Source of the DNA: Escherichia phage ES19
Sequence record: MN508616.2
Strand: one strand, 5' to 3'
Length of the DNA: 64,000 nucleotides
Positions within the stretch are counted from its first letter, which is position 1, and each line of letters opens with the position of its first letter. Positions 3,469 to 43,773 of this stretch are shown one piece after another. The notes beneath the pieces are model-generated. The model ran no database searches. It had not been told where the DNA came from and saw only the letters and a program-made list of their open reading frames with translations. Position numbers and translations under genes: made by a program.

Positions 3469-5151
3469 TTAAACCATTACAGTAAATCGACCGACTTTCT
3501 TCATTTGAAGATGCTGACCATATTCTTGCGGGTCATGGTCTTTATGCGAAATTATAAAAACATTAGTGTTTTTCATTGAATTTATAATATTAGCTACACC
3601 TTTAATACCTTCGGCATCAAATGACCCATCAAACACTTCATCGAGTATTAACGTACTAATACTAACACCAGATACAATAGAAGCAATATCACGCCAAGTA
3701 AATAAAAGAGCAATATCAATTCGTGCTTTTTCACCTTCACTAAATGAAGCATAACTAAAATCTTCACGACCACGGGATTTAATTATCTCATTAAATTCTT
3801 CATCTAATGTAAACACATAATCCGCTTCCATTATTTTAAGATAATGGTTAATCTGCTTATTAAATAATGGAATGTACTTTTTAATAATAGCACCTTTAAT
3901 ACCAGAATCTTTGAGCATATCAGTCAAAATTCCTCGGTGGTATTTTTCCATTACTAAATTAGTTTTTGTCTTAACAATTTTATCAAGTTCTTCTTGAAGC
4001 AGTGCTATTTCATCAGCATGGTCAATAAACTCAGAAGATGCTTTTTCTATAGCTGCTTTAACTTTTTTAGCTTTATCTACCGTCGTGATTAGAGATTGCT
4101 TTTTATTGCGAATATCATTTGCCAACGACTGCTGAGTTTTAATATTATCTCGGTATTCATCAACAAGAACTTTTAAATTATCACGGTGTGTTGAAAGCTG
4201 TTCAAACGAATGCGTACATTCAGAAACTTTATCTTTAATTTTAGAAACAACTTTATCACCGGAACTTAATTGTGACAAGCAGGTTGGACATAATCCACCT
4301 TCGTGATACATATTAATGACTTTATTATACGAGTCAATTTTTGATTTAATTAAAACTGCTTCTTGACCGATTTTATTAAATGCATCAGTCGGGTCTTCAT
4401 CCAAAACAATATTAACTAATCTTTCGTTAGCTTCTTCTATTTCCGATTTTAGCATTCTAGCTTCTTTTGCCAAATCATCATACATATTTTGTAGACGTGT
4501 AAGGTTGTCACCCGTTAATTTTTTCTGGCGTTCAACGTTATCATTATATATTTTAATTTGTTGGATAATACTATCTTTTTTAACATCAAGCACTTGGTTT
4601 TGTGAATTTAATTCACGTATTAGTGCTTTATTAAGCTTATCCATTTCAGCTAATGTTCCTACCTCAAGCAGGTCTTCCACAAGCTTTCTTCGCGCAGGGG
4701 TCGACAAACCCATGAAAGGGGTATACCCTGCTGTACCAAGGACAACAATCTGCTTGAAACTGGCATATGACATTCCGATAAGCTGTTCAAATTCTGCTTG
4801 GAAATCTTTACTGCTGGCAGATTCATTAAGACGTGTACCGTTAACGGTGATTTCGAAAACGTTTGGTTTTTGTCCTCTTTTGATATAGTACTTTTTCTCA
4901 TCATATTCCATCCACAGTTCAACTAAAAGTTCTTTCTTATTTGTGCTGTTTATTAATTGGCCTTTCTTTACATCACGAAATGGCTTGCCAAAAAGCCCAA
5001 ATGTGATGGCTTCTAACATAGTAGACTTACCACCGCCATTTCGTCCAGTAATAAGAGTTTTTTGAACCTTATCTAATTGAATGTCAATAGGATTTCCACC
5101 TACTGACATTATATTTTGATACCTAACTCGGTTTAGTTTAAAATTCTTCAC
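3469..5151 (-). CDS. 46: recombination endonuclease subunit gp46 (Rad50/SbcC-like ATPase)
   Basis: 560 aa; Walker A GRNGGGKST near N-terminus, Cys pair CPTC in the coiled-coil region, C-terminal ABC signature region; T4 gp46 length. Confidence 0.9.
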   Translation of the reverse strand: MKNFKLNRVRYQNIMSVGGNPIDIQLDKVQKTLITGRNGGGKSTMLEAITFGLFGKPFRDVKKGQLINSTNKKELLVELWMEYDEKKYYIKRGQKPNVFEITVNGTRLNESASSKDFQAEFEQLIGMSYASFKQIVVLGTAGYTPFMGLSTPARRKLVEDLLEVGTLAEMDKLNKALIRELNSQNQVLDVKKDSIIQQIKIYNDNVERQKKLTGDNLTRLQNMYDDLAKEARMLKSEIEEANERLVNIVLDEDPTDAFNKIGQEAVLIKSKIDSYNKVINMYHEGGLCPTCLSQLSSGDKVVSKIKDKVSECTHSFEQLSTHRDNLKVLVDEYRDNIKTQQSLANDIRNKKQSLITTVDKAKKVKAAIEKASSEFIDHADEIALLQEELDKIVKTKTNLVMEKYHRGILTDMLKDSGIKGAIIKKYIPLFNKQINHYLKIMEADYVFTLDEEFNEIIKSRGREDFSYASFSEGEKARIDIALLFTWRDIASIVSGVSISTLILDEVFDGSFDAEGIKGVANIINSMKNTNVFIISHKDHDPQEYGQHLQMKKVGRFTVMV

Positions 5152-33286: not shown

Positions 33287-33703
33287 TTAAATGTAAATAT
33301 TTTTGCCGTAATACTTATACCAGTGTGGCTTCATTAAAATTTTTTCATCGAGTCGTTGTTGACTCAACTTAATAGCTGATTTGCATGGATTATAATCATT
33401 TTTCCATTCTACTGGAATATCGCTGATGTCAGGAACTTCAGTATCTTTTATACTGAACCCGCGTTTTAAGCATTCCGTTATAATGTCCGATTGACGCTTT
33501 CGCAAAAATTCTAACTTATCGTAAAAGAAAGTAACATGACCAGAACCTAAAATAAATTTAGAAGATATTTTAAAATCTTTAACGCGCTTACCGTTTGCCA
33601 CATGCTTACGAACTATACCAAAAACACGCGGCAATTCACGGTATTCTGCGATTAAATGTTGATCAGCAAGTTCAGATACTAAAGTCAAATTAATACGAGT
33701 CAT
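33287..33703 (-). CDS. denV: endonuclease V (pyrimidine-dimer DNA glycosylase)
   Basis: 138 aa; [17 protein letters not shown] ... [10 protein letters not shown] matches T4 DenV as recalled. Confidence 0.9.
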
Positions 33704-33762: not shown

Positions 33763-34293
<531 letters not shown>

Positions 34294-37759: not shown

Positions 37760-38323
37760 TTATTTACCTAGTTTACTTATTATAGCTTCTGCAGCAGCTT
37801 TTAGCTTAGATGCAGTGTTAATACGATTTTTAATTTCAGTATACGCATCGCCAAGAACATCAAGGCTATCAGAATAAACACTTACACTATTGCGTTCGCT
37901 ATTTGAAATAGAACCTTTAGTTTTGCGGTCAAAATCGGTGTACACGTCTTGAAGATCGCGGGCTGCCTTCTTTGCATCATCCAATGCATCAAGAGCTTTA
38001 TTCAAAGCATTAACGTATTTTTTAGTGTCGAACATATTCTTAGAAATTTTAACAGGTGCGCGTTCAGGAGTAGCTAACACAGATTTAGGAACCTGAGCGC
38101 CAGATGCCAATTTCTTAGAAATTTTGAAAAATGCTTTATTGAATTTATTTTCTTGACTCATTGTAAAAGAACTATTATCGATGTTGTACATTTCAATAGC
38201 TTTAGCTTTCCACTTAAGAAAATCGCCGCGGTCTTTTGGGTCCAATTGGAAGAATACTTTAGTAAGATCTGCTTCAGATGGTAATTTTGCTGCTTCGGTT
38301 AAAAATTCGGCATAGGTTTTCAT
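37760..38323 (-). CDS. internal-protein-like protein with capsid-targeting-sequence-like N-terminus
   Basis: 187 aa; N-terminus MKTYAEFLTE-A resembles the T4 IP leader MKTYQEFIAE with a gp21-protease-type L-x-E site; possible late-promoter-like AATAAATA upstream. Confidence 0.45.
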   Translation of the reverse strand: MKTYAEFLTEAAKLPSEADLTKVFFQLDPKDRGDFLKWKAKAIEMYNIDNSSFTMSQENKFNKAFFKISKKLASGAQVPKSVLATPERAPVKISKNMFDTKKYVNALNKALDALDDAKKAARDLQDVYTDFDRKTKGSISNSERNSVSVYSDSLDVLGDAYTEIKNRINTASKLKAAAEAIISKLGK

Positions 38324-38448: not shown

Positions 38449-38922
38449 TCATTTGATTTGTTTAGCAGACCAAATGCGGTCTTTAATAATTTTTTGGATG
38501 TCTTCAACATACTCAAGAGAGTGAACATGTGGATTATCTTTGAAACTATAAGCACGGGCTAACTTTTGGCCTTCGGTTTTGATTACTAAAAGCTCTTTAA
38601 GGATAGCTTCATATTTAGCGATAATTCCTTTAACGATATTTTTTTCTTGTGCCGCTTTAGGATCTGCTTTAGGAGCAGGTTTACCCGAAGCCTTTGCAAA
38701 AGCAGCGCCAGTAGCAACTAAACTTTTCCAGGCCATACTAACTGCATTTCCCGTAAATCCTTCCGCTTTCATGTCGCGTGCAAACTGGAATCGTGATTCA
38801 TCAGAAGCATCTTTATAGGAATATTTACCCGCGGCAATGGCAGCTTTTGCAACAGCTTGAATTTCGGTGCTAGATGCTTCATTTAACACCGCTTCATTTA
38901 AAAATTGAGTATATGATTTCAT
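38449..38922 (-). CDS. internal-protein-like protein with capsid-targeting-sequence-like N-terminus
   Basis: 157 aa from ATG at 38922 (MKSYTQFLNE-A...) with RBS AGGAAATAAG; the track ORF extends upstream through the promoter and terminator. Confidence 0.5.
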   Translation of the reverse strand: MKSYTQFLNEAVLNEASSTEIQAVAKAAIAAGKYSYKDASDESRFQFARDMKAEGFTGNAVSMAWKSLVATGAAFAKASGKPAPKADPKAAQEKNIVKGIIAKYEAILKELLVIKTEGQKLARAYSFKDNPHVHSLEYVEDIQKIIKDRIWSAKQIK

Positions 38923-39674: not shown

Positions 39675-39750
39675 TGGTCGAGGCAGTAGGGATCGAACCT
39701 ACGACCTAGGACTTAGAAGGTCCTTGCTCTTCCTTCTGAGCTATGCCCCG
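39675..39750 (-). tRNA. tRNA-Arg (anticodon UCU)
   Basis: Cloverleaf folded by hand: acceptor CGGGGCA/TGCCTCG, anticodon loop CTTCTAA, T-loop TTCGATC, encoded CCA. Confidence 0.8.
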
Positions 39751-39754
39751 TAAT

Positions 39755-39830
39755 TGGGGTGACCGATGGGAGTCGAACCCATGACTACGAGAATCACAAT
39801 CTCGAGTTCTACCAACTGAACTACGGCCAC
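39755..39830 (-). tRNA. tRNA-His (anticodon GUG)
   Basis: Acceptor GTGGCCG/CGGTCAC, anticodon loop TTGTGAT, T-loop TTCGACT, encoded CCA. Confidence 0.75.
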
Positions 39831-39924
39831 ATTAATACCTACTCCAACAATCAAGATGTCTTCACACGAAATTAAGAGAAGAGTGATCAGTTCAACCCCT
39901 ATAATCGCGTCAAGTAGATATTAA

Positions 39925-39940
39925 TGTGACAGTTGTCACA
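39925..39940 (-). repeat. perfect hairpin tgtgac-agtt-gtcaca in the spacer between tRNA-Asn and tRNA-His
   Basis: 6-bp inverted repeat read directly; candidate processing site. Confidence 0.4.
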
Positions 39941-39944
39941 AATT

Positions 39945-40019
39945 TGGCGGACGTGATAGGATTCGAACCTATAACCAATCGCTTAACAGGCGATCGCTCT
40001 GCCATTGAGCTACACATCC
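39945..40019 (-). tRNA. tRNA-Asn (anticodon GUU)
   Basis: Acceptor GGATGTG/CACGTCC, anticodon loop CTGTTAA, T-loop TTCGAAT, encoded CCA. Confidence 0.8.
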
Positions 40020-40023
40020 AAAT

Positions 40024-40110
40024 TGGTGGGGAGTGGTGGAGTCGAACCACCCGAGTCGCAATGACAATGGATTTACAGTCCACACCGCTACCTCTACGGG
40101 ATAACTCCCC
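40024..40110 (-). tRNA. tRNA-Tyr (anticodon GUA), long variable arm
   Basis: Acceptor GGGGAGT/ACTCCCC, anticodon loop CTGTAAA, T-loop TTCGACT, encoded CCA; 87 nt. Confidence 0.75.
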
Positions 40111-40119
40111 AAATTAATT

Positions 40120-40194
40120 TGGTGGCCCTGGGTGGAATTGAACCACCATCTGGCGATTATGAGTCGCTTGCTTGAACCTTCCAGCTACAGGGCC
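40120..40194 (-). tRNA. tRNA with CAU anticodon (Met, or Ile if C34 is modified)
   Basis: Acceptor GGCCCTG/CAGGGCC, anticodon loop CTCATAA, T-loop TTCAATT, encoded CCA. Confidence 0.7.
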
Positions 40195-40195
40195 T

Positions 40196-40271
40196 TGGTG
40201 CTGATTGACGGAATCGAACCGCCGACCTTCTCATTACAAGTGAGTTGCTCTACCTACTGAGCTAAATCAGC
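40196..40271 (-). tRNA. tRNA-Thr (anticodon UGU)
   Basis: Acceptor GCTGATT/AATCAGC, anticodon loop CTTGTAA, T-loop TTCGATT, encoded CCA. Confidence 0.8.
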
Positions 40272-40276
40272 AAAAC

Positions 40277-40366
40277 TGGCGGAGGCGATAGGATTTGAAC
40301 CTATGAGTCGCCGGAGCGACTGCCGGTTTTCAAGACCGGTGCATTAAACCACTCTGCCACGCCTCC
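40277..40366 (-). tRNA. tRNA-Ser (anticodon UGA), long variable arm
   Basis: Acceptor GGAGGCG/CGCCTCC, anticodon loop CTTGAAA, T-loop TTCAAAT, encoded CCA; 90 nt. Confidence 0.8.
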
Positions 40367-40368
40367 AG

Positions 40369-40442
40369 TCTCCGTGGCAGGATTTGAACCTACGACATTC
40401 TGCTCCCAAAGCAGACGCTCTACCAAACTGAGCTACACGGAG
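40369..40442 (-). tRNA. tRNA-Pro (anticodon UGG), CCA not encoded
   Basis: Acceptor CTCCGTG/CACGGAG, anticodon loop TTTGGGA, T-loop TTCAAAT; only 2 nt separate it from tRNA-Ser (dimeric precursor arrangement as in T4). Confidence 0.8.
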
Positions 40443-40452
40443 TAAATTAAAT

Positions 40453-40526
<74 letters not shown>

Positions 40527-40531
40527 AAATT

Positions 40532-40618
40532 TGGTGCGAGAAGTGGGACTCGAACCCACAAGGAAATCATTCCGCAGCATTTTAAGTGCTGTGCCTTTAC
40601 CAATTTGGCCATTCTCGC
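40532..40618 (-). tRNA. tRNA-Leu (anticodon UAA), long variable arm
   Basis: Acceptor GCGAGAA/TTCTCGC, anticodon loop CTTAAAA, T-loop TTCGAGT, encoded CCA. Confidence 0.8.
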
Positions 40619-40619
40619 G

Positions 40620-40692
40620 CTGGGAATAAAGGACTCGAACCTTTGCATCCTGGAATCAAAATCCAGTGCCTTACCAACTTGGCTAATTCCCA
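40620..40692 (-). tRNA. tRNA-Gln (anticodon UUG), CCA not encoded
   Basis: Acceptor TGGGAAT/ATTCCCA (U1-A72), anticodon loop TTTTGAT, T-loop TTCGAGT; 1 nt from tRNA-Leu (Gln-Leu dimeric precursor as in T4). Confidence 0.8.
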
Positions 40693-41079: not shown

Positions 41080-41478
41080 TCAGCCTTCATCAACAATAGT
41101 GTGAGTATTAGCATTTACGATTTGCCACCAATCAAAGCGATTAGAATCCATCGGTTTGTTTTCATTTTCTTTGATAATGTCACGGAGTTCATCTTCAGAG
41201 AATGCTTTAGCAATTAAATCGGTATACCCACCACGGGGATAATAATTATCACCTGCAAACAAAAGGAAATTTACCTTCCCGGAAGCAACATATGCTTCCT
41301 TAGGATACTTGTTTCCTGCGTGGTCAACCACTTCAATATAACGGTAAGGAATATCGGTTCTTTCAGCCCATTGCCATGCCGCCGCAGGGGAATCGAAAGC
41401 ATCTACACCTAAACGATTATCTTCATCTTTAGACGGATTATTTTCGTAATCCGCATATACATAATATTCAACGTTCAT
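41080..41478 (-). CDS. hypothetical protein
   Basis: 132-aa acidic ORF. Confidence 0.45.
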   Translation of the reverse strand: MNVEYYVYADYENNPSKDEDNRLGVDAFDSPAAAWQWAERTDIPYRYIEVVDHAGNKYPKEAYVASGKVNFLLFAGDNYYPRGGYTDLIAKAFSEDELRDIIKENENKPMDSNRFDWWQIVNANTHTIVDEG

Positions 41479-41663
41479 TATTCACCTTTAGAAATTTTAT
41501 CCATAACAATAGCAATTAAACCAATTAAAAATGCTACTACAAGTGAAAACACATTTTCTGCTGTAGTCAATAATCCACATATAAATCCAACAAACATTGA
41601 AAAACTAAAAGCGGAAGCAGAAATTGCAATAGCAACATTTCGAATTAATTCACAACGTTTCAT
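41478..41663 (-). CDS. small membrane protein
   Basis: 61 aa, mostly hydrophobic; RBS GAGGAGAA; downstream of the promoter at 41692..41720. Confidence 0.45.
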   Translation of the reverse strand: MKRCELIRNVAIAISASAFSFSMFVGFICGLLTTAENVFSLVVAFLIGLIAIVMDKISKGE

Positions 41664-41691
41664 TTTATTCTCCTCAGTAGTAGATAGGGTA

Positions 41692-41720
41692 ATAGTATCA
41701 CTACCCTATCTAAAAGTAAA
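41692..41720 (-). promoter_or_regulatory. sigma70-type early promoter with -10 flanked by a perfect 9-bp inverted repeat
   Basis: TTTACT-17-TACTAT on minus; gatagggta (41683..41691) and taccctatc (41702..41710) bracket the -10. Confidence 0.45.
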
Positions 41721-41721
41721 C

Positions 41722-41955
41722 TTATTTTTTACGAAAAATTGATTTATTTTCTGCTGCCCATTTTTCAATAACTGCAGCAGGACCAGTAACAACAATTTTA
41801 TCACCGTAATCTTCTGCGGCGAGTTGACCGAAATTATCTAATGCATCACGAAGAACTCCATGAGGCATTTCACCCATTTTATCTTTCTTGCCAGTGTAAA
41901 TAAACTCAACTTTTACATCAGCAGTTTCAGCAATAAATTCTTGGTAAGTTTTCAT
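41722..41955 (-). CDS. internal-protein-like protein with canonical capsid targeting sequence
   Basis: 77 aa from ATG at 41955: MKTYQEFIAE-TADVK, identical to the T4 IP leader as recalled; the track ORF adds four upstream codons; rest of the protein does not look like T4 IPI as recalled. Confidence 0.55.
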   Translation of the reverse strand: MKTYQEFIAETADVKVEFIYTGKKDKMGEMPHGVLRDALDNFGQLAAEDYGDKIVVTGPAAVIEKWAAENKSIFRKK

Positions 41956-41989
41956 TTTGATTTCCATTTGGTTTTGTTTTGATAGGGTA

Positions 41990-42018
41990 ATAGTATCACA
42001 ACTAAAACCCTATGTAAA
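41990..42018 (-). promoter_or_regulatory. sigma70-type early promoter (TTTACA-17-TACTAT), degenerate copy of the inverted-repeat module
   Basis: gatagggta at 41981..41989 with only a partial right arm. Confidence 0.4.
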
Positions 42019-42031
42019 CAACTTTGTGAAA

Positions 42032-42289
42032 TTATTTTAAATCTTCTAATCGTTTCTTCATCTTAGAACCATTTTTAGCAATTTCTCCTGCATCGGAGCA
42101 TAATGCTAAAAGTGCTTTAACTTTAGTTTGGTCTCCTTTAAAAGATGAAGGATCGACCGCAGCAGCAAGTTCTTTAATACGAGAGAAAAGACGCTCAGCT
42201 TCAGCTAAAGCCATTCCAAGCTTTACTTCCATACCGTGGGAAGATTCAGTGATAGTAGTTTTTGTAGCAAACTCTTTGAAAGTTTTCAT
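42032..42289 (-). CDS. internal-protein-like protein with capsid-targeting-sequence-like N-terminus
   Basis: 85 aa; MKTFKEFATKTTITE-SS; RBS AGGAAAA; preceded by an inverted-repeat promoter. Confidence 0.45.
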   Translation of the reverse strand: MKTFKEFATKTTITESSHGMEVKLGMALAEAERLFSRIKELAAAVDPSSFKGDQTKVKALLALCSDAGEIAKNGSKMKKRLEDLK

Positions 42290-42320
42290 TTTTATTTTCC
42301 TAATTAATTTTGATGAGGTA

Positions 42321-42349
42321 ATAGTATCACTACCTCATCAGTATGTAAA
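42321..42349 (-). promoter_or_regulatory. sigma70-type early promoter with -10 flanked by a perfect 9-bp inverted repeat
   Basis: gatgaggta (42312..42320) - atagtatcac - tacctcatc (42331..42339); -35 tgtaaa at 42344..42349. Confidence 0.45.
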
Positions 42350-42362
42350 CAACTTTGTGAAA

Positions 42363-43047
<685 letters not shown>

Positions 43048-43048
<1 letters not shown>

Positions 43049-43773
43049 TATAGTACCTTTAGTGTATTTTTAATTTTAGAAAAAAGTTCTTCAAGAGAAC
43101 CATCGTTTGTAATTACTAAATCGCCATCACGAATTGGCAATCCAGCTTCTGTAATATGTGTATCATTGGATTTTTGACCAGGACGAACTACATGAATTAC
43201 TGTAGCACCCATCGCCCTAGCCGCATCCATTTCATGATCTTGACGGGTATCAGGAACGATATAATAATCATAACCTGAGTTAAATTTATCAAGATAATCT
43301 AAAGCAAATAATTTTACCCAGTACATGCGGTCGAAGTTATTAACAATCAAATCCGTACCTAGGGCTTGCATCAGACGACGGACTGACCATTGATCTTCAA
43401 TATTATTTATAACGTCAGTAATTTTGTTAAATGCTACGAAATTAACTGATTCTTTTCCTTCGTCATCAAAAACAAACACACCTTTAATTGGGCTTTTACC
43501 ATTAAGATAGCAAAATGCTTGTTCCATAATCATAATTACTTCTAATTTAGTCAAATTCAAATTAGTCTCACGATCATAGTCAATTCCTTCAAACTCTCTA
43601 CGAGTTAAGCAAGGATAGTCAGTGTTTGCTGCAAATACACCCCATGCATAAGCCAATGCATCTTTAATAGGACCAGCAAGTTGATATTTAACTGCAGAAT
43701 AATTATTCATGATAAAATCTGCAGTAGTATCTTTTCCACTACGCTTTACACCACTTAAAAAGATTAGTTTCAT
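43048..43773 (-). CDS. 1: deoxynucleoside monophosphate kinase gp1
   Basis: 241 aa; P-loop GVKRSGKDT; T4 gp1 length. Confidence 0.9.

Follow-up and report, generated by a model that had tools for sequence, protein, structure and literature searches.

The genes between 57B and trna.4

On the minus strand of the window, i.e. the complete 64-kb stretch of Escherichia phage ES19 DNA under study (record MN508616.2), the genes follow each other in the order gene 1 (dNMP kinase), 57A, 57B, an 85-aa ORF, a 77-aa ORF, trna.4, trna.3, trna.2 and 11 tRNA genes (Table 1). In the T4 annotation, ipI is the sole gene between 57B and trna.4. An earlier note on this DNA had delimited the two ORFs and assigned their products, two small proteins with capsid-targeting (CTS) leaders, to the ipI slot of T4. 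Both assignments are correct: the ORFs of 77 and 85 aa have the borders given there and lie on the minus strand, and the slot is framed on either side by genes whose products are fully identical to those of T4.

Table 1. Features of the ip5-ip6 region of ES19, listed in the direction of transcription of the ip genes (positions in the window)
Feature	Position	Strand	Description
T4 late-promoter motif TATAAATA	43404..43411	(-)	Inside gene 1; nearest upstream candidate for late read-through into 57A-57B-ip5-ip6
57B, left border gene	42363..42821	(-)	Product 100% aa identity to T4 57B; Acb1, anti-CBASS phosphodiesterase family (Pfam PF23474, E 3e-60)
E1, 57B-ip5	42290..42362	(-)	Early-promoter-like TTTACA(42349)-17-TACTAT(42321)
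E1 hairpin	~42311-42340		13-bp stem, overlaps promoter; -17.4 kcal/mol, z -5.1
ip5 CDS	42032..42289	(-)	85-aa precursor; predicted mature Ip5 = residues 16-85, 70 aa, 7.5 kDa, pI 9.2
Ip5 propeptide MKTFKEFATKTTITE	42245..42289	(-)	Predicted gp21 cleavage after E15
Swapped cassette content	41702..42254	(-)	Mature ip5, E2, ip6; no co-linear T4 homology
E2, ip5-ip6	41956..42031	(-)	TTTACA(42018)-17-TACTAT(41990); hairpin ~41974-42021, -18.1 kcal/mol, z -4.7
ip6 CDS	41722..41955	(-)	77-aa precursor; predicted mature Ip6 = residues 11-77, 67 aa, 7.4 kDa, pI 6.5
Ip6 propeptide MKTYQEFIAE	41926..41955	(-)	Predicted gp21 cleavage after E10
E3, ip6-trna.4	41664..41721	(-)	Weaker TTTACT-17-TACTAT; hairpin ~41681-41712, -18.5 kcal/mol, z -4.0
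trna.4, right border gene	41478..41663	(-)	61-aa hydrophobic protein; 100% aa identity to T4 trna.4

The window stems from a T-even phage of the genus Tequatrovirus. Its stretch 41400-42900 has a 100% match in many genomes, including Yersinia phage PYPS2T and Escherichia phages G9062, D5505 and a15; it is 99.9% identical to the corresponding region of HP3, and an identity of at least 99% was recorded for 91 phage records. With regard to an RNA explanation, an Rfam search of the same stretch gave no match. Plus-strand ORFs in this region, none longer than 40 aa and all antisense to the ip genes, were rejected as unsupported.

The surroundings of the two genes deserve a brief description. Upstream, the product of 57B is Acb1 (Pfam PF23474), labelled '57B' or 'RNA ligase' in many records. 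A known counter-defence gene thereby directly adjoins the internal protein (IP) cassettes, and 57B and ip5 have a repeated 3'-end/promoter element in common. Downstream, trna.3 (41080-41478, minus strand) encodes a protein that is only 64% identical to its T4 counterpart, compared with 100% for trna.4 and 94% for trna.2, and thus marks a sharp local mosaic boundary just past the IP cassettes. The tRNA cluster (39675-40692, minus strand) comprises 11 genes, among them those for tRNA-His(gtg), Asn, Tyr and Met, which are not listed in the T4 annotation of the region, and it lacks the segB homing endonuclease that splits the T4 cluster. In G9062 and JK08, both close matches, no tRNA-His is annotated at the corresponding position.

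Assignment of the two genes

The 85-aa protein encoded directly after 57B is 100% identical to Ip5 of RB15 (CAA84462), 98.8% identical to Ip5 of T2 and 92% identical to Ip5 of RB70 (P0014). Its exact sequence carries the name Ip5 in UniRef, where the representative is labelled BPT6, i.e. T6. The 77-aa protein corresponds to a gene annotated as ip6 or ipVI in JK08, fFiEco06, PST, GiZh and VR7, with full-length identities of 100% (fFiEco06, JK08), 94.8% (PST, GiZh) and 77.9% (VR7). In T-even phages with an annotated Ip6/ipVI, this gene is likewise located directly before trna.4 and encodes the same leader. Both proteins are common. The exact sequences occur in about 200 contigs for Ip5 and in 158 for Ip6, and homologues are found in approximately 270 and 230 GenBank phage records, respectively. 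PHROGs lists Ip5 as 'internal head protein' and Ip6 as 'internal virion protein' (PHROG 8111, E 1e-52). Pfam and NCBIfam gave no family match for Ip5 or Ip6, and searching PDB sequences with the two proteins returned nothing meaningful.

It is practically certain that the two genes are the known ip5 and ip6 cassettes. Both designations are said to appear in the work of Repoila (1994) as 'internal protein' gene names of T4-like phages. The reading of the locus was therefore already established; our analysis confirms the observation and adds nothing new on the locus itself.

One detail concerns the start of ip6. Begun at an in-frame ATG at 41967, the protein would have 81 aa (MEIK-MKTY...), and some records call this form. 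From the sequences, we prefer the start of the 77-aa form, as it is common to homologues that do not have the upstream ATG. A Shine-Dalgarno-like GGA or AGGA precedes both ORFs at a distance of 8-9 nt.

Leader peptides of Ip5 and Ip6

Both proteins begin with a leader of the CTS type MKT(Y/F)xEF, in which positions 4 and 7 are aromatic. The earlier note had pointed to an exact leader MKTYQEFIAE in one protein and an MKTFKEF...ITE leader in the other, and the comparison with the T4 propeptides supports it on both counts. The Ip6 leader matches the propeptide common to T4 IPII and IPIII in all of its 10 residues. The Ip5 leader MKTFKEFATKTTITE resembles the 19-residue IPI propeptide MKTFKEFTSTTTPVSTITE, with which it shares the first seven residues (MKTFKEF) and the terminal ITE. 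An exact 10-residue leader at the N-terminus of an ORF that is preceded by a ribosome site is far beyond chance. When all six frames of the window were scanned for the motif, only four CTS-type ORFs were found, all of them on the minus strand.

IP propeptides comprise 10-19 residues, and in the case of IPIII residues 1-10 are enough for entry into the head; positions 4 and 7 of the CTS are important for targeting, processing involves positions 8 and 10, and the prohead protease gp21 cuts after L/I-x-E (PMC9026906). This motif ends both leaders, as IAE10 before T in Ip6 and as ITE15 before S in Ip5, and it is invariant in the alignments of the homologues. In the case of Ip5, the stretch I13-T14-E15-S16 is retained even where, as in one variant, the leader has lost 5 residues. 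Likewise, leader and cleavage site of the Ip6 family are kept while the mature part diverges to 31-36% identity.

Ip5 harbors two further L/I-x-E motifs, LAE30 (residues 28-30) and IKE40 (residues 38-40), both located in the first predicted helix, and it might be cut further at these sites. If gp21 can reach them, Ip5 would be turned into short peptides instead of a 70-aa protein.

Mature parts and predicted folds

According to the earlier note, the slot holds two different CTS proteins, neither of them obviously IPI, and an alignment to T4 IPI, IPII and IPIII was named as a check. This alignment agrees with the claim, as similarity ends at the leader and no full-length identity to IPI is seen. 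Smith-Waterman scores of mature Ip5 and Ip6 against mature IPI, IPII and IPIII, and against each other, equal the mean of shuffled sequences. Against mature IPI (76 residues) the scores are 23-24, the shuffle mean being 23.5-24.8. When the Ip6-family alignment was compared with the IPI alignment by hhalign, only 16 leader columns could be aligned, and a phmmer search of PDB sequences gave no match to mature IPI at E values up to 10. Identity to IPI is thus absent, yet both proteins are known under other names. We also considered Ip6 as a distant homologue of IPI, since a permissive BLAST search aligned the two with 26% identity over 80 aa (E 0.004). This candidate was discarded, because the weak full-length match is due to the similarity of the leaders: with these removed, the signal is gone in both the Smith-Waterman and the hhalign comparison.

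The AlphaFold2 models give a similar picture. Ip6 is predicted to adopt a beta-alpha-beta-beta-alpha-beta arrangement (pLDDT 79.5), and Ip5 is modelled as two long antiparallel helices forming a two-helix hairpin (pLDDT 71). Mature IPI is described as two beta-sheets placed between N-terminal and C-terminal helices (PMC3012670), a fold that neither predicted structure matches. Structure searches with the two models gave generic matches only, and no structure of mature IPI was among the matches listed. Both mature proteins have a mass of about 7.5 kDa. The pI of mature Ip5, a lysine-rich protein with 13 K+R in 70 aa, is similar to that of mature IPI (9.0), and mature Ip6 is not basic (Table 1).

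An exhaustive HMMER search with mature Ip6 against 1.84 billion representatives revealed only two true relatives. A third match (P0018, 491 aa) proved to be spurious: it is an NHL-type repeat protein whose score derives from five weak repeated matches. By direct search of related loci, we found distant Ip6-like proteins in more divergent T4-like phages (L007, L012, L016, L018, L028 and L031, at approximately 4456-4692). They are 31-36% identical to Ip6, have the same leader and are encoded directly after 57B. The family features the motif G-P-x-x-x-I-(E/D)-x-W, in which G58, P59 and I63 are invariant; W66 and N70 are mostly conserved. In the model, this patch lies at the turn into the second predicted helix. 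Its retention across such wide divergence suggests that it may be a functional surface.

Intergenic elements and cassette junctions

A 71-nt element (repeat family D1) is present in three copies, upstream of ip5 (E1), ip6 (E2) and trna.4 (E3). E1 matches the element in front of T4 ipI exactly. For E2, the stretch 42037 to 41979 shows 96.6% identity to the element that separates ipI from trna.4 in T4. E3, the third D1 copy, is 61% identical; its hexamers agree with the consensus at 8 of 12 positions and stay below the scanner threshold. An extended TG precedes TTTACA-17-TACTAT in E1 and E2. In all three copies, a predicted hairpin overlaps the spacer and the -10 hexamer (z values in Table 1 are relative to shuffles). 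Matches to the sigma-70 consensus in this region are by themselves at chance level (9 found, 8.9 expected). The proposal that each gene has its own promoter nonetheless holds as a statement about the sequence, as TTTACA-17-TACTAT is located upstream of both genes and is embedded in a repeated element. It should be noted that the repeat reaches into the 3' end of the preceding gene; 57B and Ip5 end in ...DDLK and ...EDLK, respectively, before the stop codon.

Intrinsic terminators were not found between 40700 and 43100, and the hairpins have no T-run. A motif search for the T4 late promoter in the intergenic regions was negative, and the nearest TATAAATA is found in gene 1. Late expression of ip5 and ip6 may therefore occur by read-through. 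Over the whole window, the frequency of TATAAATA is at chance level (12 found, 11.1 expected).

In a blastn comparison with T4, homology is unbroken from 57A through 57B to about 35 nt into the ip5 leader. It ends at 42255 and resumes at 41701 in E3, leaving the swapped cassette content in between (Table 1).

Variation of the locus among related phages

The IP locus hotspot is a textbook case of the shuffling of phage accessory genes. The same hyperplastic pattern, with analogous IP-locus elements, was reportedly described by Repoila in 1994, and the hyperplastic IP locus is likewise treated by Arbiol (2010). To gauge the extent of this variation, we collected 36 IMG/VR loci with a gene for a 57B relative and counted the 33 in which both borders are present. 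The slot contains no CTS gene in 2 loci, one in 14, two in 11 and three in 6. All but two of the resulting 54 CTS ORFs have L/I-x-E at the end of the leader (52/54). Their mature parts, however, fall into 14 families without detectable mutual similarity. The earlier idea of a hypervariable locus is thereby substantiated. Among the arrangements are ip5-ip6, ip6 alone, ip7 alone, ip8-ip9, ip9-ip7 and ip9-ip5-ip6, and in two loci (L010 and L011) the slot is empty. In KMB42 the order is 57B-ipI-ip6-trna.4, so ip6 pairs with either ipI or ip5. The IP pattern, with 'more than 30 known variants' of IPs, has been discussed in terms of PeSL-like shuffling of promoters and stem-loops (PMC2839356, PMC4122927).

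Members of the Ip5 family are not confined to this slot. In Escherichia phage slur03 (L043 1501-1782) and many other Tequatrovirus genomes, the second IP locus, flanked by e and denV, encodes an Ip5 paralogue with 47.6% identity; it was recorded for 228 GenBank phage records. The same cargo family therefore occurs at both IP loci.

In ES19, denV (33293-33703) is separated from the lysozyme gene e (33766-34257) by about 62 bp, which means that the classical ipII-ipIII locus is empty. A tblastn search of the whole window gave no homologue of IPII or IPIII. Apart from the two classical IP loci, a third position, between e.8 and the tRNA cluster, contains two paralogous minus-strand ORFs of 187 aa (37760-38323) and 157 aa (38449-38922), both assigned to PHROG 2280 ('unknown function'). 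Their products start with CTS-like leaders that end in L-x-E, MKTYAEFLTE and MKSYTQFLNE, each followed by A. The 187-aa protein is found in 164 GenBank phage records and is called 'hypothetical protein' in every record listed. Similar CTS ORFs are found at the same relative position in four IMG/VR loci (L009, L013, L014, L037). On the basis of their leaders, the two paralogues are candidates for unannotated internal proteins. With no ipII or ipIII and two unannotated CTS-bearing paralogues, the IP repertoire of ES19 is quite unlike that of T4.

Possible function of Ip5 and Ip6

[quoted passage not shown] Silas et al. (2025) suggest GmrSD variants as the targets of the accessory proteins encoded at the two Ip loci (PMC12373910). 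In line with this model, we consider ip5 and ip6 to be interchangeable cassettes in the hyperplastic ipI locus whose products are probably injected and may be GmrSD-directed inhibitors, an overall explanation to which we assign a probability of about 0.7. Its parts differ in strength. By analogy with the T4 proteins, Ip5 and Ip6 are very probably packaged, processed and injected. A role as GmrSD-directed defence inhibitors is also argued from analogy, and here we see an even chance.

In the proposed course of events, modelled on T4 IPI-III, the precursor would attach by its leader to the prohead scaffolding core, and gp21 would remove the leader after E15 (Ip5) or E10 (Ip6). The mature proteins of about 7.5 kDa would remain in the head beside the DNA in many copies and would be ejected into the cell before any phage gene is expressed. 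The subsequent steps are more speculative. Each protein may bind to and disable a single, specific host defence directed at glucosyl-hmC DNA on its entry, most likely a GmrSD-family type IV restriction enzyme of a particular subtype. The repeats of leader, promoter and hairpin could provide the homology for cassette swaps between co-infecting phages, and such swaps might let a lineage fit its set of inhibitors to its hosts. The near-neutral pI of mature Ip6 counts against this explanation, as the T4 IPs are basic.

In the literature searched, from which the 1994 description is excluded, we found no experiment that shows virion incorporation, cleavage or injection of Ip5 or Ip6. The only functional test that we found is a negative one: when ip4-10 (by name) were assayed against further GmrSD variants, apparent interactions were not repeatable and no reproducible inhibition resulted (PMC12373910, Supplementary Fig. 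9). However, only a few of the very diverse GmrSD subtypes were active against T-even phages and hence testable (PMC12373910), so this negative result is weak. A more specific constraint comes from T2 and T6, which are restricted by GmrSD-ECOR21 and GmrSD-ECOR17 (PMC12373910). Both phages carry Ip5 and yet are restricted; Ip5 therefore does not block these two enzymes at its natural dose.

These findings bear on the possibility that Ip5 and Ip6 are injected inhibitors with a different defence target, such as another nuclease, an entry-stage abortive-infection sensor or a system for the exclusion of competitor phages. Besides the lack of reproducible inhibition of additional GmrSD variants by ip4-10 and the restriction of T2 and T6, the adjoining 57B would fit such a role: it encodes the anti-CBASS protein Acb1, so the neighbourhood is not purely anti-restriction. 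On the other hand, GmrSD enzymes are the targets of all three Ips for which targets are known, and the small number of GmrSD subtypes testable on T-even phages limits what the negative screen can say. In our judgement, a target outside the GmrSD family is rather unlikely.

A mainly structural or physical role as head contents (charge neutralisation, DNA spacing, or core assembly as proposed for IPIII), with no specific host target, appears improbable. In T4, there are about 300 copies of each IP, IP lysines are in contact with the phosphates of the DNA, and heads assemble more slowly when IPIII is lost (PMC3012670, PMC9026906). These properties, together with the basic, lysine-rich character of mature Ip5, would be compatible with such a role, and ES19 has neither ipII nor ipIII, so another protein may take it over. 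Mature Ip6, however, is near neutral, the slot is empty in the related phages L010 and L011, and a generic physical role leaves unexplained why 14 unrelated families replace each other. The notion that the leaders are evolutionary leftovers of early, purely cytoplasmic and unpackaged proteins could draw on the early sigma-70-type look of the only promoters directly before the genes and on the lack of a late-promoter motif in the intergenic regions, but it is highly improbable given that otherwise unrelated proteins have nothing conserved but leader and cleavage site, which indicates selection on targeting and processing, that Ip6 begins with exactly the IPIII leader whose sufficiency for packaging was shown by experiment (PMC9026906), and that the T4 IPs are packaged themselves. 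Mainly structural and purely cytoplasmic roles are thus possible but less likely, because the targeting and processing signal is the only conserved part and the slot can be empty.

Returning to the preferred reading of Ip5 and Ip6 as injected inhibitors, we tentatively raise the possibility that one or both inhibit a target that would be new for internal proteins, be it a GmrSD subtype outside those tested or an unrelated entry-stage defence. If true, the Ip6 family would represent a new small inhibitor scaffold, with a predicted ferredoxin-like fold and the motif G-P-x-x-x-I-(E/D)-x-W, ranging from Tequatrovirus to distant T4-like phages. Since ipII and ipIII are absent, the set injected by ES19 would then consist of Ip5, Ip6 and the two CTS-bearing paralogues of the third locus, an anti-defence repertoire unlike that of T4. 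Ip5 and Ip6 are among the most widespread internal proteins of T-even phages, and their carriers include therapeutic candidates such as HP3. Once found, their targets would extend the map of Ip-GmrSD inhibitor-enzyme pairs and aid the prediction of host ranges for therapeutic T-even phages.

Comparison with known systems

The closest counterparts of the two ES19 proteins are Ip5 and Ip6/ipVI of other T-even phages. In the case of Ip5, it is the same protein at the same place and we see no difference; for Ip6, there is no substantive difference. T4 IPI, the inhibitor of the CT596 GmrS-GmrD enzyme, resembles the ES19 system in that it occupies the same slot behind an identical upstream promoter/hairpin element, has a leader like that of Ip5, is similar in size and is likewise predicted to be cleaved by gp21 after ITE. 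It differs in its mature part, which has no detectable similarity to Ip5 or Ip6, and in the fold, compared with those predicted here. T4 IPII and IPIII, which inhibit GmrSD-ECOR21 and GmrSD-ECOR17, respectively, share with Ip6 the identical 10-residue CTS and, presumably, the route of packaging and injection, whereas their mature parts are unrelated and their genes are located at the other locus, between denV and e.

With regard to its architecture, the locus is reminiscent of PeSL-type cassettes (Arbiol 2010; Comeau 2014), in which an early promoter overlapping a stem-loop is also repeated between small accessory genes and recombination junctions are found in the repeats. According to Arbiol (2010), the elements associated with the IPs of T-even phages are analogues, not homologues, of the PeSLs of RB49 and phi1 and are built on T4 early promoters. 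The ES19 locus departs from the PeSL type in one respect, namely that the leader-coding sequence is also part of the shared homology.
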